NCBI GenBank assembly: GCA_965208575.1
Contig: CBDBOV010000004.1
Location: forward strand, 1,216,001 to 1,280,000
DNA length: 64,000 nucleotides
Source: Spirochaetia bacterium
Lineage (GTDB): Bacteria; Spirochaetota; Spirochaetia; SZUA-6; Bin103
Reading direction: 5' to 3'
The notes under the pieces were generated by a model. It worked only from the letters and a program-made list of their open reading frames with translations. It made no database searches and had not been told where the DNA came from. Below, piece after piece: positions 48,568 to 64,000 of the stretch (position 1 is its first letter; each line of letters opens with the position of its first letter). Position numbers and translations under genes: made by a program.

Positions 48568-48979
48568 GTGCGTGTCGTGCTCGACACCGGGATACTCATC
48601 GCCGCCCTGATTACCCGCAACACGCCCCCGGACCCAACTGTACCAGTTGTGGCGGAAGCGACGGTTCACGCTGATCACTTCGGAGTCGCAACTTGATGAG
48701 TTCCGGCGCGTTACCCGATACGCGAAGCTGCGCCGATTCCTGAAGCCTCACGAAGCAGGGTCGCTCGTACGCGGTGTACGAGCCCGAGCAGTGCTTGTAT
48801 CAGAGCTGCCAAACATCGATCTGGTGGATGACCCCGGCGACAATCTCGTGCTCGCTACTGCACTTGCCGGCGACGCCGATTACCTGGTCACGGGCGACCG
48901 GCGCCACCTGCTGCATCTGAAGAAGGTTCGCAGGACCAGGATACTGACGGCACGTGAACTCGCGTGTCGGCTCGACTGA
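48568..48979 (+). pseudogene. PIN toxin with a 1-nt insertion near 48625-48635
   Basis: RVVLDT N-terminus and DPGDN..LVTGD C-terminus are in different frames; span 412 nt = 3n+1. Confidence 0.8.
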
Positions 48980-49057: not shown

Positions 49058-49516
49058 TCACGGACCGTCTGATCCGATCTTCCGGATGAGGAAGTCCCCC
49101 TCACTCGATCCCTCGGAGGTAAACGTGACGAACGCGAAAGTCGCACTATGCACGTGTTCGCACTCGTGGGTTCCGGCCCGCCGGTCGTCGAACGTCAGGT
49201 CGCAGGTGACCCTTGAAGCCGCTGAGCCGGAATCCCCGAAGACTATCGAAACGGTGGCGGTGTCGCGGCCATCGCGAGAGTAGGTCCAGTTCCGCGCTCT
49301 GTCGAGGACCGAATTAAGTGCTCTCTCCTTGGACTTGAAGTGGAATTCATCCGAGTGAGCAAGCAAGACGCCCTCCCGTCGATCGTGCGTGAACTCCAGG
49401 GTGTACCCTACGATTGAATCGGGAGCTACCGGCCCGGTGGTAGTTACGGTTACCGAGCAACCGGAGATTAGGACGGCCATTGCGATGTGAGCCAGCCAGA
49501 CGAATCGCTTGTTCAT
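49058..49516 (-). CDS. Putative lipoprotein
   Basis: GGAGGAG RBS; signal peptide ending in lipobox ISG-C. Confidence 0.7.
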   Translation of the reverse strand: MNKRFVWLAHIAMAVLISGCSVTVTTTGPVAPDSIVGYTLEFTHDRREGVLLAHSDEFHFKSKERALNSVLDRARNWTYSRDGRDTATVSIVFGDSGSAASRVTCDLTFDDRRAGTHECEHVHSATFAFVTFTSEGSSEGDFLIRKIGSDGP

Positions 49517-49915
49517 GATTCTCCTCCGCAGTCTACGTTCCGCGCGGTGTGAGGCGCGGTCACGAGCATGAACGATCCGCGGCCCACGCTCCATAACGAC
49601 ATGATAGCGGGTTCCACGCAGAATGTCCCGGCGCCGCGGGCCGCTACGCCTCAACTTTCAGCCGGGGGCCAACTGATGCCGTCGCGGCCGGCGAGGTGCC
49701 GTACTTCGCTGGCGACAGGGCGACATGCAAGCGGTGGGTCAGATGGGCGCGGCGGTCGCGTGGCGGGTCGCCCACAGGCGAGTCGAGGTGGATCTGCGGT
49801 TCGAGGCACCACTCGAAGCGCTCGAAGCCACCACGCCGATGGCGGCGCTCCGCCACGGACACACGTACCGCCACGTCCAGCTTGCCCACCAGCGCGGTCT
49901 CCTGAGAAACAACAA

Positions 49916-51304
49916 TCAGGCGGCCTCCGGGACAAGCTCATAACCGAGTGCGTGTGCCTGCCTTCGGAGCCGGCGTTCAAAGCGGCGCCGGTCCTGGCGC
50001 TCCTCGGCGGCGAGGATGCTGTCATCGTAGGCCACGCGATGCGTGATCAGATGGTAGATGATCCGAGCCAGTTTATGCGCGACTGCAGTGGTCGCTTCGG
50101 GAGTACCCAGACGCGCCCGCATGCGGCGGAAGTGCTGGCCCAGGGCCGATGGGCTGCGGTACAACGACTGGGTCGCCCAGTGCAGCGCCTGGGCGGCCCG
50201 ATTGGTGCCCCGACCGGTGTGCGAGCTGATGATCTTGCCGCCGGTGATCTGGTTGTGGGGGCACAGGTGCAGCCAGGAGGCGAATTGCGGTGCGGTCGGA
50301 AAGCGGGACAGTTCCGGGCCGAGTTCGGTGAACAGAACCAGCGCCGTACTTTCGCCGATGCCGGGAATCAGCGTCAGGTCAGTGCCGAACAGGTGCGTAA
50401 GGTGGCCGCGCAGGTCGAACCGCTTGGCCGGTGACTCGGTTGGCGCCTCGGGCTCCGCATCGATTCCCTCATCCGGTGGGTCGTCGCCCACCGCGCCGGG
50501 TGGCTCGCTGCTGGCTTCGAACGCGCGGATGCCGGCTTCGATTTCCTGATCGCACTCCGTGATGAGTTGTTGGTAGTGGGCATAGGTCGCTCGCGCGTGC
50601 CGCAACGCCAACAGGTGCTCGGCGCGCCAGTCGCCCTGCAGCGCCTTGATCAAGGTCTCGCGGCTGGCTTTGATCCGCCGGTCGGCCAGAGCGGCCAACC
50701 GCGCCGGATCCCGCTCACCCGCCAGGATAGCGTCCGTAATGGCCAGACCGGTCGTCCCCGTCAGGTCAGAGATGGCATGGTGCAGATGCACGTTCATCTG
50801 GCTGTACGCCTTCTGCATGTGCAACACGCTGCGCGACGCCATCTTGATCAAGGTGTCGCGATGGCGCAGCACCGAGCGCAGTGCACACACCTCGTCGGCA
50901 GGGCGGAATGAGCCGCGCAGCAATCCCACCGAGTGCAGGTAGCGCAACCACTCGCAGTCGGCCACGTCGGACTTCCGACCGGGTACCGAGTGCACGTGAC
51001 GCGCATTCACCAGCACCACGTCGAAGCCGTGTGCCTCCAGGATCTGATACACCGGAATCCAGTACACACCGGTGGACTCCATCGCCACCGTGGTGACCTC
51101 GCATTCCTTGAGCCAGTCGGCCAAGGCGTGCAGGTCCGCGGTGAACGTAGCAAAGTTCCGGATCGGGTCCGGGTCGCGCTCCGGGCGCACAGCCGCGTAC
51201 ACCTCGGTAGCGCCTATGTCCAAGCCGGCAGCGTCCGGGTGCATCACCTTTGGTTGCGCTGTGCGACTGCCCTTGCCCTTGCGTCTGTGTCTGCGTCGTG
51301 CCAT
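49916..51304 (-). CDS. IS110 DEDD recombinase
   Basis: GLDIG, AMESTG, KSDVAD, IPGIG, AVAHKLAR; GGAGG RBS before ATG 51304. Confidence 0.95.
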   Translation of the reverse strand: MARRRHRRKGKGSRTAQPKVMHPDAAGLDIGATEVYAAVRPERDPDPIRNFATFTADLHALADWLKECEVTTVAMESTGVYWIPVYQILEAHGFDVVLVNARHVHSVPGRKSDVADCEWLRYLHSVGLLRGSFRPADEVCALRSVLRHRDTLIKMASRSVLHMQKAYSQMNVHLHHAISDLTGTTGLAITDAILAGERDPARLAALADRRIKASRETLIKALQGDWRAEHLLALRHARATYAHYQQLITECDQEIEAGIRAFEASSEPPGAVGDDPPDEGIDAEPEAPTESPAKRFDLRGHLTHLFGTDLTLIPGIGESTALVLFTELGPELSRFPTAPQFASWLHLCPHNQITGGKIISSHTGRGTNRAAQALHWATQSLYRSPSALGQHFRRMRARLGTPEATTAVAHKLARIIYHLITHRVAYDDSILAAEERQDRRRFERRLRRQAHALGYELVPEAA

Positions 51305-51329
51305 GAAACCTCCGCTACGACTGAGTGGT

Positions 51330-51507
51330 GCGGCCAAGGCGTGTGTAGCAGGTATTCTCCTGAACGGGATGATCGCCACCCGGCCGCGCCGGCTGACAAC
51401 CTCACCAATGACTACGCCACCCGCCCCGGGGCCAAGCTCTTGAACGGGTTCGCAGAACGTAACGCCAGTGACGCGCCGGCCTACTTTCGCGCTCCACCCA
51501 GAACTCT
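51330..51507 (-). ncRNA. Putative bridge RNA, copy 1
   Basis: Two loops TCAYTGG-hairpin-CCGTTCARGAG; guide segments at 51437-51443 and 51357-51363; TATAGT at 51514-51519; ends approximate. Confidence 0.7.
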
Positions 51508-51588
51508 GCCCACACTATAGCTCACCCTTGTTTCTTTCATGACTGCGCCGGCCCAGGGGCCGGTGGGATAGCTCCTGAGAAACAACAA

Positions 51589-52977
51589 TCAGGCGGCCTC
51601 CGGGACAAGCTCATAACCGAGTGCGTGTGCCTGCCTTCGGAGCCGGCGTTCAAAGCGGCGCCGGTCCTGGCGCTCCTCGGCGGCGAGGATGCTGTCATCG
51701 TAGGCCACGCGATGCGTGATCAGATGGTAGATGATCCGAGCCAGTTTATGCGCGACTGCAGTGGTCGCTTCGGGAGTACCCAGACGCGCCCGCATGCGGC
51801 GGAAGTGCTGGCCCAGGGCCGATGGGCTGCGGTACAACGACTGGGTCGCCCAGTGCAGCGCCTGGGCGGCCCGATTGGTGCCCCGACCGGTGTGCGAGCT
51901 GATGATCTTGCCGCCGGTGATCTGGTTGTGGGGGCACAGGTGCAGCCAGGAGGCGAATTGCGGTGCGGTCGGAAAGCGGGACAGTTCCGGGCCGAGTTCG
52001 GTGAACAGAACCAGCGCCGTACTTTCGCCGATGCCGGGAATCAGCGTCAGGTCAGTGCCGAACAGGTGCGTAAGGTGGCCGCGCAGGTCGAACCGCTTGG
52101 CCGGTGACTCGGTTGGCGCCTCGGGCTCCGCATCGATTCCCTCATCCGGTGGGTCGTCGCCCACCGCGCCGGGTGGCTCGCTGCTGGCTTCGAACGCGCG
52201 GATGCCGGCTTCGATTTCCTGATCGCACTCCGTGATGAGTTGTTGGTAGTGGGCATAGGTCGCTCGCGCGTGCCGCAACGCCAACAGGTGCTCGGCGCGC
52301 CAGTCGCCCTGCAGCGCCTTGATCAAGGTCTCGCGGCTGGCTTTGATCCGCCGGTCGGCCAGAGCGGCCAACCGCGCCGGATCCCGCTCACCCGCCAGGA
52401 TAGCGTCCGTAATGGCCAGACCGGTCGTCCCCGTCAGGTCAGAGATGGCATGGTGCAGATGCACGTTCATCTGGCTGTACGCCTTCTGCATGTGCAACAC
52501 GCTGCGCGACGCCATCTTGATCAAGGTGTCGCGATGGCGCAGCACCGAGCGCAGTGCACACACCTCGTCGGCAGGGCGGAATGAGCCGCGCAGCAATCCC
52601 ACCGAGTGCAGGTAGCGCAACCACTCGCAGTCGGCCACGTCGGACTTCCGACCGGGTACCGAGTGCACGTGACGCGCATTCACCAGCACCACGTCGAAGC
52701 CGTGTGCCTCCAGGATCTGATACACCGGAATCCAGTACACACCGGTGGACTCCATCGCCACCGTGGTGACCTCGCATTCCTTGAGCCAGTCGGCCAAGGC
52801 GTGCAGGTCCGCGGTGAACGTAGCAAAGTTCCGGATCGGGTCCGGGTCGCGCTCCGGGCGCACAGCCGCGTACACCTCGGTAGCGCCTATGTCCAAGCCG
52901 GCAGCGTCCGGGTGCATCACCTTTGGTTGCGCTGTGCGACTGCCCTTGCCCTTGCGTCTGTGTCTGCGTCGTGCCAT
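51589..52977 (-). CDS. IS110 DEDD recombinase
   Basis: Same protein sequence as copy 1. Confidence 0.95.
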   Translation of the reverse strand: MARRRHRRKGKGSRTAQPKVMHPDAAGLDIGATEVYAAVRPERDPDPIRNFATFTADLHALADWLKECEVTTVAMESTGVYWIPVYQILEAHGFDVVLVNARHVHSVPGRKSDVADCEWLRYLHSVGLLRGSFRPADEVCALRSVLRHRDTLIKMASRSVLHMQKAYSQMNVHLHHAISDLTGTTGLAITDAILAGERDPARLAALADRRIKASRETLIKALQGDWRAEHLLALRHARATYAHYQQLITECDQEIEAGIRAFEASSEPPGAVGDDPPDEGIDAEPEAPTESPAKRFDLRGHLTHLFGTDLTLIPGIGESTALVLFTELGPELSRFPTAPQFASWLHLCPHNQITGGKIISSHTGRGTNRAAQALHWATQSLYRSPSALGQHFRRMRARLGTPEATTAVAHKLARIIYHLITHRVAYDDSILAAEERQDRRRFERRLRRQAHALGYELVPEAA

Positions 52978-53002
52978 GAAACCTCCGCTACGACTGAGTG
53001 GT

Positions 53003-53180
53003 GCGGCCAAGGCGTGTGTAGCAGGTATTCTCCTGAACGGGATGATCGCCACCCGGCCGCGCCGGCTGACAACCTCACCAATGACTACGCCACCCGCCCC
53101 GGGGCCAAGCTCTTGAACGGGTTCGCAGAACGTAACGCCAGTGACGCGCCGGCCTACTTTCGCGCTCCACCCAGAACTCT
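53003..53180 (-). ncRNA. Putative bridge RNA, copy 2
   Basis: Guide segments at 53110-53116 and 53030-53036; ends approximate. Confidence 0.7.
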
Positions 53181-53363
53181 GCCCACACTATAGCTCACCC
53201 TTGTTTCTTTCATGACTGCGCCGGCCCAGGGGCCGGTGGGATAGCTCTTGACCGAGTCGGGCCAAGTGCGCCGGCAGCATCACCCGGTCGGCGGGCAGCG
53301 TTTCGTGCCGCCGGTACACGCCGTGCCCGGGCGGCAGCTTGCCGGTCAGCATGCGGGTCACTG

Positions 53364-53534
53364 TACTAGATCGTCGACCCGCGCGACCACACGATCCGGG
53401 TGCTCACGCTGCAAGGCACCGCATACGTGGAGCATGGCGTCTACATACGGGGCGAAACCGCGACGTCGCCGCTGTTGGCAGGTTTCACGGCCGAGGTGAG
53501 CAGCGTGTTCGACGCACCGACTGTCGGCGCGTAA
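53364..53534 (+). pseudogene. Uma2-family endonuclease C-terminal remnant
   Basis: Y*IVDP (EYWIVDP with TGG>TAG)...SPLLAGF...VF. Confidence 0.7.
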
Positions 53535-53659
53535 GGTTCGACAGGCTAACGCGATAGAACCAAGGGCTCGGAGTGCTTGGCAACGGGACGCGCCAAGCTG
53601 GCGAGTGTCCGTGCTCGGTTGACCGTGCGGGGTGGGTTCCATAGGATTGCCGGCATTCC

Positions 53660-54613
53660 ATGGCAGACTCTCCGGCAGCACAGCGCCTGGCCCCGGCGCG
53701 GCAGTCCACGTGGCAGCGCGCCGTGCGCACGCTGCGCAAGGACCGCTACCTCTACCTGATCTTCCTGCTGCCGTTCCTGTACTTCCTCGTGTTCCACTAC
53801 CTGCCGATCTACGGCGTCATCATCGCGTTCAAGAACTACAAGGTGGCGTTCGGCATCTGGGGCTCCAAGTGGGTCGGGCTGCAGTACTTCATCGAGTTCC
53901 TGACCGATCCCTACGCCTGGAAGCTGATCCGCAACACCATGCTGCTGTCGTTCTACAGCATCGTGTTCGGCTTCCCGATACCGATCATCCTGGCGCTGCT
54001 GCTCAACGAGCTGCAGATCTCCTGGTTCAAGCGGGTGGTGCAGACGGTCAGCTACCTGCCGCACTTCATCTCGGTGGTGGTGGTGGCCGGCATGGTGGTG
54101 AACTTCCTGTCCAGCGACGGCCTGGTGAACCGCATCATCGTGGCGCTCGGCGGCGAGTCGTTCCCGTGGCTCATGCAGCCGCGCTGGTTTCCCGGCATCT
54201 ACGTCATCTCCGGCATCTGGCAACACGCCGGCTGGAGTTCGATCATCTACCTGGCCGCCCTGTCGGCGATCGACCCGGAACTGTACGAGGCGGCCACCAT
54301 CGACGGCGCCGGCCGCTTTCAGCAGATGCGCCACATCACCCTGCCCGGCATCGCCCCCACCATCACCATCCTGCTGATCCTGGACCTGGGCCGCATCATG
54401 GCGGTGGGCTGGGAGAAGATCCTGCTGCTGTACACCGGCGCCACCTACGAAACCGCCGACGTGCTGCAGACCTACATCTACCGCCGCGGCCTGGAGGGCG
54501 CCGACTTCAGCTACGCCACCGCGGTGGGCGTGTTCCAGGGGCTGGTGGGCCTGGCGTTCGTGATCGGGGCCAACTACCTGTCGCGCAAGTTCTCGGATAC
54601 CAGCCTGTGGTAA
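53660..54613 (+). CDS. Carbohydrate ABC permease (LplB-like)
   Basis: KWVGL, YLPHFIS, LYEAATIDGA (EAA loop). Confidence 0.95.
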   Translation: MADSPAAQRLAPARQSTWQRAVRTLRKDRYLYLIFLLPFLYFLVFHYLPIYGVIIAFKNYKVAFGIWGSKWVGLQYFIEFLTDPYAWKLIRNTMLLSFYSIVFGFPIPIILALLLNELQISWFKRVVQTVSYLPHFISVVVVAGMVVNFLSSDGLVNRIIVALGGESFPWLMQPRWFPGIYVISGIWQHAGWSSIIYLAALSAIDPELYEAATIDGAGRFQQMRHITLPGIAPTITILLILDLGRIMAVGWEKILLLYTGATYETADVLQTYIYRRGLEGADFSYATAVGVFQGLVGLAFVIGANYLSRKFSDTSLW

Positions 54614-59075: not shown

Positions 59076-60193
59076 ATCCCATCCACTGTCCAACCTATCG
59101 GGTCCACGTCACCAACCCCGACCAGGGGCCGACGTTGACGTTGCGGTGATGCTTTCAGCGAACCCAGCAAAGGCCCGCGAGAAGGTCGCTTCGCTGGGAA
59201 TCGCCCCGATACTCTCCCGGCCACACAGGCGGCGCAGCGCCCGGTCGTTGGCCAGCCGCTCGCGCAGCGCTCTGGTGGTGTCGATTTGGAACACCGCCTT
59301 GGCGATGAAGGCGCGCGCCAACGCCGCCCGATCCTGTTGCGGACGACCGCGCAGGCTGCGCCCACAGGGCAGCTGTTGTTCCACCCGGACGAACTCGAGC
59401 ACGGTAATGAACAACTGGTAGCGTTCTCCCAGAGGACCGAGTGAGGGTGCCCCATTTTGGTGGACAGGTAACTACTGAGGTGGCGGGGTAGTGCATGGCA
59501 GGTTGAGGTGTATTCGGTTGGTTGTCAACCCGCGCCTCCACGACGCCTCCCAGGATTCCACGGCAAATAAATGGTGGCGGTAAAGGGGTGGGGGTCCGGG
59601 GGAGGGGTTGAGGGTGCCCCGTTTCGGTGGACAGGTAACTTCTGAGGTGGCGGGGTAGTGCATGGTAGGTTGAGGTGTATTCGGTTGGTTGTCAACCCGC
59701 GCCTCCACGACCCCCACGACACGACGCCTCCCGAGATTCCACGGCAAATAAACGGTGGCGGTAAAGGGGGTGGGGATCCGGGGGAGGGGTGGGATTTGCC
59801 TGTGGATATGTGGACAAGTCCGCATCAAGCTGGGGGTGGTGGCGGTGTGGATGGCCGTGAGCGGCGCCGGTGTGCGCGGTCAGGAGATCGCACGACCGTG
59901 ATCAGTGCTGGCGGCATGGACAGCGGGTGCCGGGAGTCGAAACGGAGCGCCTGAGGGACGATTCGGGGTTCAGCAAGGGTATCCGGGACCACCTGCTCGC
60001 GAGGAGCGGCCTTACAGGGCCGCTGAGAGCGCCAGTTCGCGCCGCACCGGCAAGATGTCGGCCCGGGTGGGGCTGCAGCCGCCGGGAGCGGCGCGGTCGA
60101 GCCGGTCCGGGGCGCCCGTGTGGGGACGGACCCGCGAGCGGTGCGCCGCTTGGAAACTATGCAGCCGTCGCAACGGGTCGGCAGCAGGTTGCC

Positions 60194-60487
60194 TCAGTCG
60201 CGCCCATACCCGCGTGGCGGCTCGACGCTCTCCAGAGCGCCAAGATCAAGCGCGCAAATCGCCTCCAGCTTGTCGCCGAGCGCGGTCTCCTGGAGCGCCT
60301 CGGGCAGGTTGTCGAGCCACGCTTGATACTCTCCCTGGAGGTCGAGCAGGGTGCGCACCGCATCCTGCCAGCGCTGCGGTCGGGAGCGCCGGTCGTGCGG
60401 TCGGCGGTACTGCGCTCGCGGCTGCTGCGCCTTGCGCCGCGCTCGATAGCGCCGTTGGCGTTGCGCATTGGTCAACGCCATGGGCAC
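60194..60487 (-). CDS. IS passenger protein of unknown function (basic TNAQRQRRYRAR N-terminus)
   Basis: Identical protein in both diverged IS copies, with synonymous DNA differences. Confidence 0.8.
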   Translation of the reverse strand: MPMALTNAQRQRRYRARRKAQQPRAQYRRPHDRRSRPQRWQDAVRTLLDLQGEYQAWLDNLPEALQETALGDKLEAICALDLGALESVEPPRGYGRD

Positions 60488-60677
60488 TGATCACCGTTAC
60501 GTAACGGCTCCTGGTCCAGCACCTCAGACGCTGCATCCCCGCTGCGCTGCGTGCTCACCGCGACGCCGGTCGGCGCGCGCAGCCGACTCGGACGCCAAGC
60601 GGTCCGGAGAGGGCCAATTGCCGACGAATATTGTCCCTGGAGGGGGCCGAGCGCCAGCATCGGCACCACGACGATGC

Positions 60678-61529
60678 TCATGCTGCCGCTCCTGTCCGAG
60701 TGGCCTCGAACGCGACCGGCGACTGGTAGCCCAGCGCCGAGTGACGCCGGCGACGGTTGTAGAACCCCTCGATGAACTCGAATATTGCCAAGCGCGCCTC
60801 GGCACGGCTGCGAAATCGGCTCCGATCAAGCAACTCGCACTCCAGGGTCGCGAAGAAACTTTCGCACATCGCGTTGTCGTATGCATCGCCCACCGAGCCC
60901 ATCGAGGGACGCACGCCGGCCTCTTTGCAGCGCATCCCGAACGCAATCGAGGTGTACTGAGAGCCCTGGTCGCTGTGGTGGATCACCTGCTCGGGTCGCC
61001 GCTGCCAGAGCGCCATGTCCAGCGCCTCCAGCACCAGTTCCGTGCGCAGATGACCGGCCATCGACCAGCCCACTACCCGGCGGCTCCAGGTATCCAGCAC
61101 CACCGCCAAGTACAGAAACCCCGCCCACGTCGGCACGTACGTAATGTCGGCCACCCACAATTGGTCGGCCCCGGCCGCGGTGAAGTTCCGATCCACCAAG
61201 TCTGGCGCCGGTCGGGTCGCCGCGCCACGCGTTGTGGTCCTGGGCCCGCGGCGGCGACTGGCCCCTTCGATGCCGGCCTGCTTCATCAGCCGCGCCACCC
61301 GCTTGTGCCCGACTCGTTCGTTCTCACCCTGCAACTCGGCGTGGATGCGCGGCCGACCATACACCTCGCGGTTGGCTCTCCATATCGCCGTGATACGCTC
61401 CCGCAACTGTCCATCGCGCCGCTCTCGCGCCGACGGCTCGCGGCGCACCCACGCATAGTAGCCGCTGGCGGAGAGACCCAGCACTCGACATATCGTGCGT
61501 ACCGGCCAGCGCGCCTGGTTGGCTTTCAC
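60678..61529 (-). CDS. IS3 OrfB (DDE)
   Basis: WVADITY, HHSDQGSQY, CESFF. Confidence 0.93.
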   Translation of the reverse strand: MKANQARWPVRTICRVLGLSASGYYAWVRREPSARERRDGQLRERITAIWRANREVYGRPRIHAELQGENERVGHKRVARLMKQAGIEGASRRRGPRTTTRGAATRPAPDLVDRNFTAAGADQLWVADITYVPTWAGFLYLAVVLDTWSRRVVGWSMAGHLRTELVLEALDMALWQRRPEQVIHHSDQGSQYTSIAFGMRCKEAGVRPSMGSVGDAYDNAMCESFFATLECELLDRSRFRSRAEARLAIFEFIEGFYNRRRRHSALGYQSPVAFEATRTGAAA

Positions 61530-61840
61530 GAACTCGAACCCCGCTCGGGGATCGAGTCGCTCTCCCGTGCGAACCAGGCCGCTGCTTTTTTTAGGATGTC
61601 ACGCTCGATCCGCAGTTGCTTGTTCTCTCGCCGCAGTCGGCGCAGCTCCTGGCGTTCATCGCTGCTCAACCCGTCCTCGCGGCGTCCAGCGTCCCGCTCC
61701 TGCTGCGCCACCCAGTTGCGGATCGCGCCCGCAGACGGCTCGTACTCCAGCGCCAACTCCTCGGGCGTGCGCCCAGACTGCACCAGCTCGACCATCTGCT
61801 GGCGAAACTCAGGCGCGTATGGTCGATGTGTCTTCGGCAT
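61526..61840 (-). CDS. IS3 OrfA
   Basis: HTH plus leucine zipper; AAAAAAAG frameshift signal at 61585-61592. Confidence 0.92.
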   Translation of the reverse strand: MPKTHRPYAPEFRQQMVELVQSGRTPEELALEYEPSAGAIRNWVAQQERDAGRREDGLSSDERQELRRLRRENKQLRIERDILKKAAAWFARESDSIPERGSSS

Positions 61841-62260
61841 CGTTGCCTCCTCATTCCGCCTCACTCCTAATGTGTCCACGAAACTGGGGCAACTCCAGGG
61901 TGGGATTTGCCTGTGGATATGTGGACAAGTCCGCATCAAGCTGGGGGTGGCGGCGTGGATGGCCGTGATCAGTGCTGGCGGCATGGACGTAGCGGGTGCC
62001 GGGAGTCGAAACGGAGCGCCTGAGAGACGATTCGGGGTTCAGCAAGGGGTATCCGGAGACCACCTGCTCCCGTGGAGCGGCCTTACAGGGCCGCTGAGAG
62101 CGCCAGTTCCGCGCCGCACCGGCAAGATGTCGGCCCGGGTGGTGCTGCAGCCGCCGAGCGCGGTGCGGTCGAGCCGGTCTGGGGCGTCCGTGGGGGGCGG
62201 ACCCGCGAGCGGTGCGCCGCTTGGAATTGTGCAGCCGTCGCGGGTCGGCAGCAGGTTGCC

Positions 62261-62554
62261 TCAGTCGCGCCCATACCCGCGTGGCGGCTCGACGCTCTCC
62301 AGTGCGCCAAGATCAAGCGCGCAAATCGCCTCCAGCTTGTCGCCGAGCGCGGTCTCCTGGAGCGCCTCGGGCAGGTTGTCGAGCCACGCTTGATACTCGC
62401 CCTGGAGGTCGAGCAGGGTGCGCACCGCATCCTGCCAGCGCTGCGGTCGGGAGCGCCGGTCGTGCGGTCGGCGGTACTGCGCTCGCGGCTGCTGCGCCTT
62501 GCGCCGCGCTCGATAGCGCCGTTGGCGTTGCGCGTTGGTCAACGCCATGGGCAC
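62261..62554 (-). CDS. IS passenger protein, second copy
   Basis: Same protein as 60194-60487. Confidence 0.8.
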   Translation of the reverse strand: MPMALTNAQRQRRYRARRKAQQPRAQYRRPHDRRSRPQRWQDAVRTLLDLQGEYQAWLDNLPEALQETALGDKLEAICALDLGALESVEPPRGYGRD

Positions 62555-62744
62555 TGATCACCGTTACGTAACGGCTCCTGGTCCAGCACCTCAGACGCTG
62601 CATCCCCGCTGCGCTGCGTGCTCACCGCGACGCCGGTCGGCGCGTGCAGCCGACTCGGACGCCAAGCGGTCCGGAGAGGGCCAATTGCCGACGAATATTG
62701 TCCCTGGAGGGGGCCGAGCGCCAGCATCGGCACCACGACGATGC

Positions 62745-63596
62745 TCATGCTGCCGCTCCTGTCCGAGTGGCCTCGAACGCGACCGGCGACTGGTAGCCCA
62801 GCGCCGAGTGACGCCGGCGACGGTTGTAGAACCCCTCGATGAACTCGAATATTGCCAAGCGCGCCTCGGCACGGCTGCGAAATCGGCTCCGATCGAGCAA
62901 CTCGCACTCCAGGGTCGCGAAGAAACTTTCGCACATCGCGTTGTCGTATGCATCGCCCACCGAGCCCATCGAGGGACGCACGCCGGCCTCTTTGCAGCGC
63001 ATCCCGAACGCAATCGAGGTGTACTGCGAGCCCTGGTCGCTGTGGTGGATCACCTGCTCGGGTCGCCGCTGCCAGAGCGCCATGTCCAGCGCCTCCAGCA
63101 CCAGTTCCGTGCGCAGATGACCGGCCATCGACCAGCCCACTACCCGGCGGCTCCAGGTATCCAGCACCACCGCCAAGTACAGAAACCCCGCCCACGTCGG
63201 CACGTACGTAATGTCGGCCACCCACAATTGGTCGGCCCCGGCCGCGGTGAAGTTCCGATCCACCAAGTCTGGCGCCGGTCGGGTCGCCGCGCCACGCGTT
63301 GTGGTCCTGGGCCCGCGGCGGCGACTGGCCCCTGCGATGCCGGCCTGCTTCATCAGCCGCGCCACCCGCTTGTGCCCGACTCGCTCGTTCTCAGCCTGCA
63401 ACTCGGCGTGGATGCGCGGCCGACCATACACCTCGCGGTTGGCTCTCCATATCGTCGTGATACGTTCCCGCAACTGTTTGTCGCGCCGCTCTCGCGCCGA
63501 CGGCTCGCGGCGCACCCACGCATAGTAGCCGCTGGCGGAGAGACCCAGCACTCGACATATCGTGCGTACCGGCCAGCGCGCCTGGTTGGCTTTCAC
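62745..63596 (-). CDS. IS3 OrfB (DDE)
   Basis: A few substitutions relative to 60678-61529. Confidence 0.93.
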   Translation of the reverse strand: MKANQARWPVRTICRVLGLSASGYYAWVRREPSARERRDKQLRERITTIWRANREVYGRPRIHAELQAENERVGHKRVARLMKQAGIAGASRRRGPRTTTRGAATRPAPDLVDRNFTAAGADQLWVADITYVPTWAGFLYLAVVLDTWSRRVVGWSMAGHLRTELVLEALDMALWQRRPEQVIHHSDQGSQYTSIAFGMRCKEAGVRPSMGSVGDAYDNAMCESFFATLECELLDRSRFRSRAEARLAIFEFIEGFYNRRRRHSALGYQSPVAFEATRTGAAA

Positions 63597-63907
63597 GAAC
63601 TCGAACCCCGCTCGGGGATCGAGTCGCTCTCCCGTGCGAACCAGGCCGCTGCTTTTTTTAGGATGTCACGCTCGATCCGCAGTTGCTTGTTCTCTCGCCG
63701 CAGTCGGCGCAGCTCCTGGCGTTCATCGCTGCTCAACCCGTCCTCGCGGCGTCCAGCGTCCCGCTCCTGCTGCGCCACCCAGTTGCGGATCGCGCCCGCA
63801 GACGGCTCGTACTCCAGCGCCAACTCCTCGGGCGTGCGCCCAGACTGCACCAGCTCGACCATCTGCTGGCGAAACTCAGGCGCGTATGGTCGATGTGTCT
63901 TCGGCAT
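63593..63907 (-). CDS. IS3 OrfA
   Basis: Same protein as 61526-61840. Confidence 0.92.
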   Translation of the reverse strand: MPKTHRPYAPEFRQQMVELVQSGRTPEELALEYEPSAGAIRNWVAQQERDAGRREDGLSSDERQELRRLRRENKQLRIERDILKKAAAWFARESDSIPERGSSS

Positions 63908-64000
63908 CGTTGCCTCCTCATTCCGCCTCACTCCTAATGTGTCCACGAAACTGGGGCAACTCCACGAGGTCTTCTGCGATGGTCGGGAACAGGTGCTGTT

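Follow-up and report, generated by a model that had tools for sequence, protein, structure and literature searches.

Does the non-coding leader of an IS110-family recombinase gene encode an RNA that selects where its element inserts, and can the guides of that RNA be read from natural sequence? These questions are raised by an insertion sequence (IS) on the minus strand of a 64,000-nt stretch of a Spirochaetia bacterium genome (assembly GCA_965208575.1, contig CBDBOV010000004.1, positions 1,216,001 to 1,280,000 of the forward strand). We refer to the whole stretch as the window and give all positions in its coordinates. A sequence-only reading of this DNA had proposed a bridge RNA with target and donor guides upstream of the gene. 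That interpretation was essentially right, as the loop strands of the RNA covary with the flanks and with the right end of the element across 79 related loci. We consider it very likely that this is an active-looking IS110-family IS whose leader folds into a bispecific bridge (seek) RNA that guides a DEDD recombinase at a 2-nt core. The element belongs to the known class of IS110-family RNA-guided recombinases and its clade is widespread; we found no description of the clade in the portions of the IS110-family literature covered.

Two head-to-tail copies of one IS110-family unit

Between 49899 and 53246, on the minus strand, the window contains two head-to-tail copies of a 1673-bp IS110-family unit that are 100% identical. 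A repeat search and an offset scan both give an exact self-match of 1676 nt at an offset of 1673 (49899-51574 equals 51572-53247); Tandem Repeats Finder, run with a maximum period of 500, returned no rows for this tandem. Because the boundaries of the IS are fixed by the exact tandem repeat, they are independent of any guide match. Copy B (51572..53246) consists of an AG core at 53246-53245 and a body of 1671 bp (53244-51574), followed by the core at 51573-51572 that it has in common with copy A. Copy A (49899..51573) has its body at 51571-49901 and a terminal AG core at 49900-49899, which is adjoined by the right target flank ACCGCGC from 49898 downward. Each unit is made up of a 268-nt non-coding left end (LE; 53244-52978 in copy B), an open reading frame (ORF) of 462 aa and a 14-nt right end (RE) before the shared AG.

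In gene orientation, the flank/LE junction reads ...CGGTCAAG-AG-CTATCC (with the LE starting at 53244), the RE/LE junction between the copies reads ...TTTCTCAGG-AG-CTATCC, and the RE/flank junction reads ...TTTCTCAGG-AG-ACCGCGC. The right end of the element reads ...TTGTTTCTCAGG AG. Common to the left target/LE, RE/LE and RE/right target junctions is a single AG plus one coincidental G, and there is no multi-base target duplication. The shared triplet GAG had been read as the core; the actual core is the 2-nt AG, invariant in both RNA loops in 41/41 sequences, and the additional G is coincidental. The AG lies on the recombinase strand and CT on the opposite strand. As is typical for the IS110 family, the element has no terminal inverted repeats and a short core that is shared by target and donor.

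The tandem arrangement means that the window actually contains the end-to-end donor junction (51572/51573), and the junction of copies B and A at 51573/51571 is a natural donor (circle-type) junction. The sequence-only reading had reconstructed this junction with an exact TCAGGAG, which we confirm, and had missed the tandem itself; the strings that it quoted are all present on the minus strand.

The recombinase gene of copy B (51589..52977, minus strand; 462 aa plus stop) is preceded by a ribosome-binding site (GGAGG, 52986-52982), and the gene of copy A lies at 51304-49916 on the same strand. The product matches PF01548 (DEDD_Tnp_IS110, 6.4e-20) and PF02371 (Transposase_20, 1.5e-11) in Pfam, and in NCBIfam it matches NF033542, "IS110 family RNA-guided transposase," with 251 bits against a cut-off of 140. 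Both databases bear out the earlier assignment to the IS110 family. The protein has the DEDD domain and the C-terminal Tnp domain with Ser/Thr-Gly by which IS110-family proteins are recognized. The DEDD residues D29, E76, D113, and D116 are invariant in 26/26 aligned proteins; T354-G355 aligns to the Ser-Gly of IS621, and at the position aligned to the IS621 nucleophile serine, 19 of the 26 have T, 6 have S, and 1 has C. IS621 is the sole solved relative of the recombinase (E 1.3e-7, C-terminal domain). With 462 aa, the protein is above the range of 395-455 aa described for the subgroup that contains IS110 itself (PMC11187229), and the nearest Streptomyces and Rhodococcus plasmid-borne IS110-family genes have ~31-34% identity to it.

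A conserved two-loop RNA with guides that covary with the insertion site

A protein search scored 8000 candidate relatives, 7995 of them at E<=1e-3, with the best 95% identical. In a scan of the genome collection 578/581 candidate stretches were confirmed, and we kept 79 loci, mostly from Acidobacteriota, Cyanobacteria, Burkholderiales, and Dehalococcoidia. The protein search found proteins that are 73-95% identical, whereas the related DNA loci examined are all only 44-60% identical.

An alignment of the upstream regions of 41 relatives (A2) gave a consensus fold of four helices with 24 pairs. Counted in the same alignment from which the structure was predicted, 97.2% of 976 cells are paired, compared to 83.7% in column shuffles (0/500 reach this value), and 134 cells carry double changes, compared to 35.4 in shuffles. 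In slid controls, with partners moved by 1-3 columns, 31.5-44.9% of cells are paired. Since several pairs are invariant G:U, the transcribed strand is the strand of the recombinase gene. A covariance model built from A2 (R1) places the RNA core of copy B, with both loops, at 52994..53169 (minus strand, 97.5 bits, E 8e-26) and that of copy A at 51321-51496 (97.5 bits). It gave 86 matches at E<=1e-3 in 512,593 bases (the window and the 79 loci), two in the window and 84 in the loci, all of which are upstream of a recombinase gene and on the same strand. The two loops that had been drawn upstream of the gene on the minus strand are therefore a conserved two-loop RNA across relatives. The element has what is expected of the IS110 family at the RNA level, a structured RNA in its long non-coding end with loops complementary to target and donor.

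Each loop contains, in order, an outer stem, a 5' strand ending in C-A-n, an inner hairpin, and a 3' strand of the form N6-AG-N2; the inner hairpins of both loops open with TGG and close with CCG. The target-binding loop (53103..53154, minus strand), defined by alignment, fold and covariation, has an outer stem of GGCCG (53154-53150) and TGGCC (53107-53103), a 5' strand GCGCGTCAC (53149-53141; GCGCGT-CAC), an inner hairpin at 53140-53118, and a 3' strand TTCAAGAGCT (53117-53108). Its closing stem is helix 1, the GGCC/GGCC stem noted previously, and is supported by covariation (98.5% of cells paired). The closing stem of the second loop is helix 3 (CGGGG/CCTTG), in which 94.6% of cells are paired and compensatory changes occur in 5/5 pairs. 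A different second closing stem had been suggested, GCGGGTG/TACCTGC. It can be drawn in the window sequence and is not conserved in the 41 relatives, where 53.0% of 287 cells are paired versus 50.5% in shuffles (53/500 reach this).

The 3' strand of the target loop consists of a left-target guide (TTCAAG, 53117-53112), the core AG (53111-53110), and a handshake-like dinucleotide CT (53109-53108). It has the sequence that runs from the left flank across the AG core into the IS, of which it includes the first two bases. We compared the last 9 nt of this strand (N5+AG+N2) to a fixed interval of 95 nt upstream. In 75 distinct cognate pairs the match is 9/9 in 43 and 8/9 in 22, compared to 5 and 141, respectively, in 5462 non-cognate pairs. 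Guide and target thus covary among homologues, which the sequence-only reading had put forward as a way to examine its proposal. The match always occurs 77-129 nt upstream of the loop and marks the flank/LE boundary. In the window it is TCAAGAGCT, with 9/9 positions, so the left target match that had been reconstructed is real beyond chance. If the boundary is set by the 7-mer alone, the next 2 nt equal the N2 of the loop in 43/51 loci (shuffle mean 12.3, maximum 23 in 2000 shuffles). This N2 behaves like the handshake guide of IS621, which is described as following the AG of the right-target guide and pairing with the donor (PMC11208158). We infer that in the left target half this 3' strand (TTCAAG-AG-CT) would base-pair with the DNA strand of opposite sense, and that once the strands have been exchanged, its final dinucleotide would make the handshake contact with the donor.

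The 5' strand of the target loop appears to read the other side of the insertion site. We compared its N6+C to the reverse complement of the first six right-flank bases plus one core base in 53 distinct pairs, with four tandem cases dropped because the "flank" there is another IS. In the main register the mean match is 3.32/7 versus 2.36 for non-cognate pairs, and 0/2000 locus shuffles reach the total. The match is 7/7 in 5 loci, and the register one base over also carries signal. As the reverse complement of the right flank and one core base, the window strand (GCGCGT-C) may read the right target half. Together with this RNA, the recombinase would recombine the junction of an IS circle with the chosen DNA site at the AG core. 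Programmability of the guides is suggested by their natural covariation with the flanks.

One alternative is that the loop strands are DNA-level copies of the IS ends, used as protein-binding or recombination sites, and that the leader is an ordinary structured 5' untranslated region. The donor-side strings are indeed repeated as DNA within the element, and the leader has no match in Rfam. However, host flanks vary from locus to locus and the target-loop strings vary with them, the helices keep their pairing through the 134 double changes, and the invariant G:U pairs would be C-A on the other strand. In addition, NCBIfam names the family as RNA-guided, and RNA guidance is reported as demonstrated for IS621, ISEc21, and others (PMC11208160, PMC11187229). 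We regard the DNA-level alternative as very improbable.

It is scarcely credible that the RNA has the ordinary IS621 geometry, with the long left guide on the 5' strand and the 3'-strand match secondary. The RNA is upstream of the gene as in the IS110 group, and the 5' strand of 9 nt is as long as the left guide of IS621. Compared to the left flank, however, the 5' strand has a mean longest common string (LCS) of 2.94 in the same sense and 2.71 as the reverse complement, with a background of ~2.97. Its match is to the right flank, as the reverse complement; the strong signal for the left flank comes from the 3' strand, which in both loops also has the invariant AG. The matches to the flank and to the right end confirm a trait that had been remarked on as unusual, the 3' position of the long guide in each loop.

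Besides the use of one alignment for both prediction and pair counting, several results weigh against the proposal of a bispecific guide RNA. The relatives are phylogenetically non-independent. Rfam (4227 covariance models) had 0 matches at E<=1 in 49500-53700. Single-sequence folds of the left end and of the RNA core are no better than shuffles (z of -0.88 and -0.86), and such folds are uninformative in DNA of 68% GC. We found 0 sigma-70-type consensus promoters and 0 intrinsic terminators in 51300-53400. A TATAGT occurs at 53192-53187 without a good -35, and no junction promoter composed of a -35 in the RE and a -10 in the LE was seen by eye. The right guide of the window (GCGCGT-C versus ACCGCGC) matches at 3/7 positions in the main register of the family and at 5/7 one base over, so the earlier remark that the right-hand target guide matches poorly was fair. 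It may fit fully with one bulged flank base, GCGCG(G)TC, in a gapped alignment of our own making. In the donor loop, both bases of the N2 match the first two right-flank bases in 7/56 loci, with 5.1 expected, which is not a significant excess. The donor-loop 5' strand has no convincing signal against the reverse complement of the left IS terminus in registers -2 to +7 (LCS of 3.52 versus 3.69+-0.11).

Donor recognition and comparison with IS621, IS1111, and ISEc21

The donor-binding loop (53008..53101, minus strand; alignment, fold and covariation) is closed by CGGGG (53101-53097) and CCTTG (53012-53008), the stem identified above as helix 3. Its 5' strand CGGGTGGCGTAGTCAT (53096-53081) ends in GGCGTAGTCAT (53091-53081), its inner hairpin is at 53080-53038, and its 3' strand TTCAGGAGAA (53037-53028) consists of TTCAGG (53037-53032), AG (53031-53030), and AA (53029-53028). 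The N5+AG of this 3' strand equals the right IS end exactly (7/7) in 69/80 model matches with that region present. The right-end match occurs at the expected distance, directly after the gene; the version in the window is TCAGGAG. We predict that the donor-loop 3' strand (TTCAGG-AG) recognizes the right IS end just as the target-loop 3' strand recognizes the left flank. In the window the two 3' guides are one base apart (TTCAAG-AG versus TTCAGG-AG), as was pointed out before.

The 5' strand of the donor loop has a same-sense match inside the element. Compared to LE +22..+33 its mean LCS is 4.75, versus 3.76+-0.10 for shuffles (0/500 reach it), and a match of at least 7/10 is found in 14/47 cognate and 64/2116 non-cognate pairs. 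The match is kept by at least a dozen different sequences, and the matched LE segment is the ~11 nt just outside the left repeat described below. In the window, GGCGTAGTCAT (53091-53081) and GGCGCAGTCAT (53222-53212) agree at 10/11 positions. The corresponding degenerate 11-mer occurs exactly four times in the 64 kb, twice per IS copy and always on the minus strand. As the matches of both donor-loop strands are same-sense, both strands would pair with the same CT-bearing DNA strand.

The segment is part of a left-end terminal module (53201..53244, minus strand) that we defined from the sequence and from family comparison. The module contains the LE terminus CTATCCCA (53244-53237), a hairpin (CCGGCCC-CT-GGGCCGG, 53236-53221), the matched segment (53222-53212), and a left inverted repeat AGAAACAA (53208-53201). 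The repeat pairs over 8 bp with the right inverted repeat TTGTTTCT (51585-51578), which is in the right end of copy B (51574..51588) and overlaps TCAGG (51578-51574). The layout in the family is ~8 nt from the terminus, then a hairpin with variable stem sequence, ~11 nt, and the repeat. In 43/48 distinct elements, RE -14..-6 and LE +31..+45 are joined by an exact inverted repeat of 7-11 nt, and the other 5/48 have one of 5-6 nt. The arms covary (GTTTC/GAAAC, GTTCC/GGAAC, GTTCA/TGAAC, GGTCC/GGACC, and GTTAG/CTAAC). The subterminal inverted repeat that had been noticed alongside an upstream RNA is thus conserved in position and covarying.

We suggest, tentatively, a joint model in which the donor is recognized as a folded single strand and in which target loops that copy donor loops give rise to homing arrays; we consider this combination improbable overall. 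The CT-bearing strand ("top" in IS621 terms) is reported to be copied out as a single-stranded circle. At the circle junction, this strand could fold into an internal loop that mimics the RNA loop, with the subterminal inverted repeat as closing stem and the left-end hairpin as inner stem. The 3' strand of the RNA would then pair with the right end and core, and the 5' strand with LE +23..+33. In the array part of the model, elements would home to their own or a relative's right junction and build arrays.

Our comparisons to IS621 and IS1111 rest on published descriptions rather than on their sequences, which weakens what can be said of the IS1111 geometry. In IS621 the RNA is described as transcribed from the left end, with a 9-nt left-target guide (A50-U58) 5' of the hairpin in the sense of the left flank plus CT, and with the right guide G77-G80 (which ends in AG) and the handshake (81-82) both 3' (PMC11208158, PMC11208160). 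The element studied here is like IS621 in having a DEDD recombinase with Ser/Thr-Gly, an RNA in the left end upstream of the gene, two internal loops with inner hairpins, 3' strands composed of a guide, AG and a handshake-like dinucleotide, a 2-nt core without target duplication, and a short right end.

The differences from IS621 concern the protein, the guides, and the ends. The IS621 protein has 326-328 aa versus 462 aa here, and the kinship is remote, with the E value of 1.3e-7 confined to the C-terminal domain. The core CT is on the strand antisense to the RNA, and for this reason it is the 3' strand that has the 7-8-nt guide to the upstream flank, and the 5' strand that reads the downstream flank. 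In IS621, left guides are on the 5' strands and right guides with the handshake on the 3' strands, a polarity that does not hold here. The donor is also different. Both guides of IS621 read core-flanking sequence, whereas here the 3' strand does so and the match of the 5' strand is not to the terminus but to a stretch located 23-33 nt into the left end. The subterminal repeat is 7-11 bp compared to 2-3 bp reported for the IS110 group, and there is no recognizable junction promoter in this element.

The RNA design, with guide, AG and handshake on the 3' strand, and the chemistry may be conserved with IS621, and the cassette of RNA plus gene would be inverted relative to the recombination site. 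The inversion follows from the CT-bearing strand being antisense to both RNA and gene.

For IS1111 seekRNAs, a top-strand match 5' of the bottom-strand match is described, opposite to the order in ISEc21 (PMC11187229). Our element resembles the IS1111 group (ISEc11, ISKpn4, and ISPa11) in having the top-strand-complementary segment 5' of the bottom-strand-complementary one, in its long subterminal inverted repeats (within the 7-17 bp of that group) with terminal extensions, and in allowing Thr in the Ser-Gly nucleophile motif. It is unlike that group in that their non-coding RNA region is downstream of the gene, whereas it is upstream in the window and in all model matches, and in that their proteins have 330-350 aa rather than 462 aa. 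With ISEc21, whose seekRNA is reported to co-purify with the transposase, it shares an upstream non-coding region; ISEc21 also has a target inside other mobile elements, which may be compared to the tandems of different ISs described in the next section. The top-strand match of ISEc21 is 3' of its bottom-strand match, the reverse of the order seen here (PMC11187229).

Set against these published descriptions, the element combines an IS1111-type guide order with an IS110-type upstream RNA. We found no description of this combination in the parts of the IS110/IS1111 literature covered, supplements and Extended Data aside. The clade appears to depart from the IS621 model in its guide polarity, its long covarying subterminal repeat, its internal donor match, and its self-regenerating target.

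Bridge/seek recombinases are under development as programmable tools for DNA insertion, excision, and inversion, for which nearly all current design rules derive from IS621 and a small number of close orthologues. The clade offers a natural long-guide design, in which one strand has 7-8 nt plus handshake and the other has 6-7 nt, compared to a right guide of 4 nt in IS621. An inverted cassette would mean that the recombination chemistry is independent of which end holds the RNA gene. The covarying subterminal repeat and the internal match of the donor 5' strand are not explained by current models, and both bear on IS110 excision and on whether a single-stranded circle is the true donor.

Origin of the tandem, relatives, and surroundings

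The right IS/flank junction of the dimer (TCAGGAG-ACCGCGC, 49892..49905, minus strand) regenerates a near-cognate target, as a single base distinguishes the right end from the left target half (TCAGG-AG versus TCAAG-AG). The occupied-target pattern within one mismatch has 4 matches in the window, where 2.3 are expected, and only this one adjoins the IS. We propose that a second circle would insert at the right junction of the first copy and so yield the observed dimer. In locus L053 the guide and right end have the same one-mismatch relation, and the left flank is the element's own RE. Locus L049 counts against this origin, as it is a homotandem without similarity between right end and target.

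A second, diverged IS directly follows the first in L064 (1560-5220; Dehalococcoidia metagenome-assembled genome (MAG) OZ253464.1) and in L030 (453-4100), and probably in L011 (498-2245).

The target guide of the second IS equals the RE of the first in these hetero-tandems (TTGGGG-AG in L064, 8/9 in L030), and the 5' guide of the second IS in L064 keeps the same four right-flank matches (AGAC). Judging from these guides, the second ISs look as if they are programmed to home to the right junction of a relative. The natural sequences of the dimer and of the neighbour-targeting relatives point to a simple way in which IS arrays may be built.

Tandem IS110 modules are reported in 3/96 colonies (10.1101/2025.10.25.684509) and in genomes (n=437; 10.64898/2026.08.14.744561). 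The published tandems, as far as they are described (10.1101/2025.10.25.684509, 10.64898/2026.08.14.744561, 10.64898/2026.08.31.748434), are like ours in having head-to-tail whole modules and one-sided left-donor matches at the boundaries. They are unlike ours in that the right junction here regenerates the target within a single mismatch. It has been argued that insertion does not regenerate the target (10.64898/2026.08.14.744561), and the clade looks like an exception to this argument.

The tandem could instead be an assembly artefact, in the form of a collapsed or expanded repeat or a merged circular intermediate. There is 100% identity between copies A and B, another near-perfect tandem (period 2067, IS3-family transposase) is found 7 kb away, and several related tandems are on short MAG contigs (L049 with 3596 nt and L011 with 2246 nt). 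On the other hand, the flanks are unique on both sides of the tandem in the window, and the tandem modules reported from experiments and genomes, cited above, show that such arrangements occur. The hetero-tandems of L064 and L030 hold two different IS sequences and for that reason are not collapse artefacts. An artefact therefore seems to us a quite improbable explanation.

An origin by homologous recombination, unequal exchange, or half-match (donor-only) recombination, rather than by guide-directed reinsertion, is unlikely but deserves to be taken seriously. Published work on IS621 and CazIS110 describes half-match recombination as well as tandem by-products, and the target guide of the L049 tandem is unlike its own right end. 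However, the guides in the window and in L053 are one base off their own right ends, and in L064, L030, and L011 the guide of the downstream IS equals the right end of the upstream IS, which is unexpected from a homology-driven duplication. We favour guide-directed reinsertion for the tandem in the window.

Relatives of the element are also found on plasmids (448 records, the best 50.7% identical), including those of Agrobacterium, Rhizobium, Paraburkholderia, and Nostoc, and they are annotated solely as "IS110 family transposase." Citrobacter plasmids account for 61 records, which are 45.7-45.9% identical among the matches listed. Many close homologues are on contigs of ~1650-1700 nt, roughly one IS unit, as would be expected for collapsed multi-copy repeats or circular forms.

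Some loci contain several copies that are not head-to-tail. There are three copies of one IS within 7 kb in L046 (at 2805, 5111, and 6867) and two copies of one IS in L040 (at 2301 and 4491), with spacings of 2306, 1756, and 2190 nt. The short targets of all these copies resemble one another (…GGTT-AG), suggesting that a repeated target sequence is clustered in these loci. In nine loci (L013, L014, L019, L020, L021, L023, L025, L070, and L079) the left flank has the form TGTCAT(C/G/T)C(C/T)G-AG. It seems that these Acidobacteriaceae elements and that of L079 all insert at copies of a single repeated sequence, which may be a REP-like repeat or the terminus of a different mobile element.

The window has a GC content of 68%, and the neighbours of the IS are an amidohydrolase, a PIN-domain ORF, and an ABC-transporter permease. 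The PIN-domain ORF (PIN_3, 6.1e-10; 48647-48979, plus strand) is ~0.9 kb from the IS and is probably the toxin of a toxin-antitoxin pair. When the empty site is restored in silico, stop-to-stop frames of 64-158 aa run across the junction, and nothing in Pfam matches either half of the best minus-strand frame at E<=1. An 84-aa frame (49647-49898, minus strand) that runs on from the insertion point has 69% identity, over half of its length, to the 493-aa sulfatase/phosphodiesterase-type protein P0121. The search for homologues of an interrupted gene covered proteins of at least 148 aa, and an intact gene of ~130 aa would be outside this range. Based on this frame, the IS may sit in a gene remnant.

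The second tandem duplication occupies 60174-64000 and continues to the end of the window, with a period of 2067 bp and ~96-100% identity per 50-nt window of comparison. Each of its units has a 283-aa ORF of IS3 type on the minus strand (60681-61529 and 62745-63596) with the domains rve, HTH_21, and rve_3. With two tandem IS arrays within 15 kb, the region may be highly active or may have been misassembled. A direct repeat of 119 nt with 91% identity (59429-59547 and 59596-59714), its two copies spaced 167 nt apart, lies a short way upstream of the IS3-type tandem.

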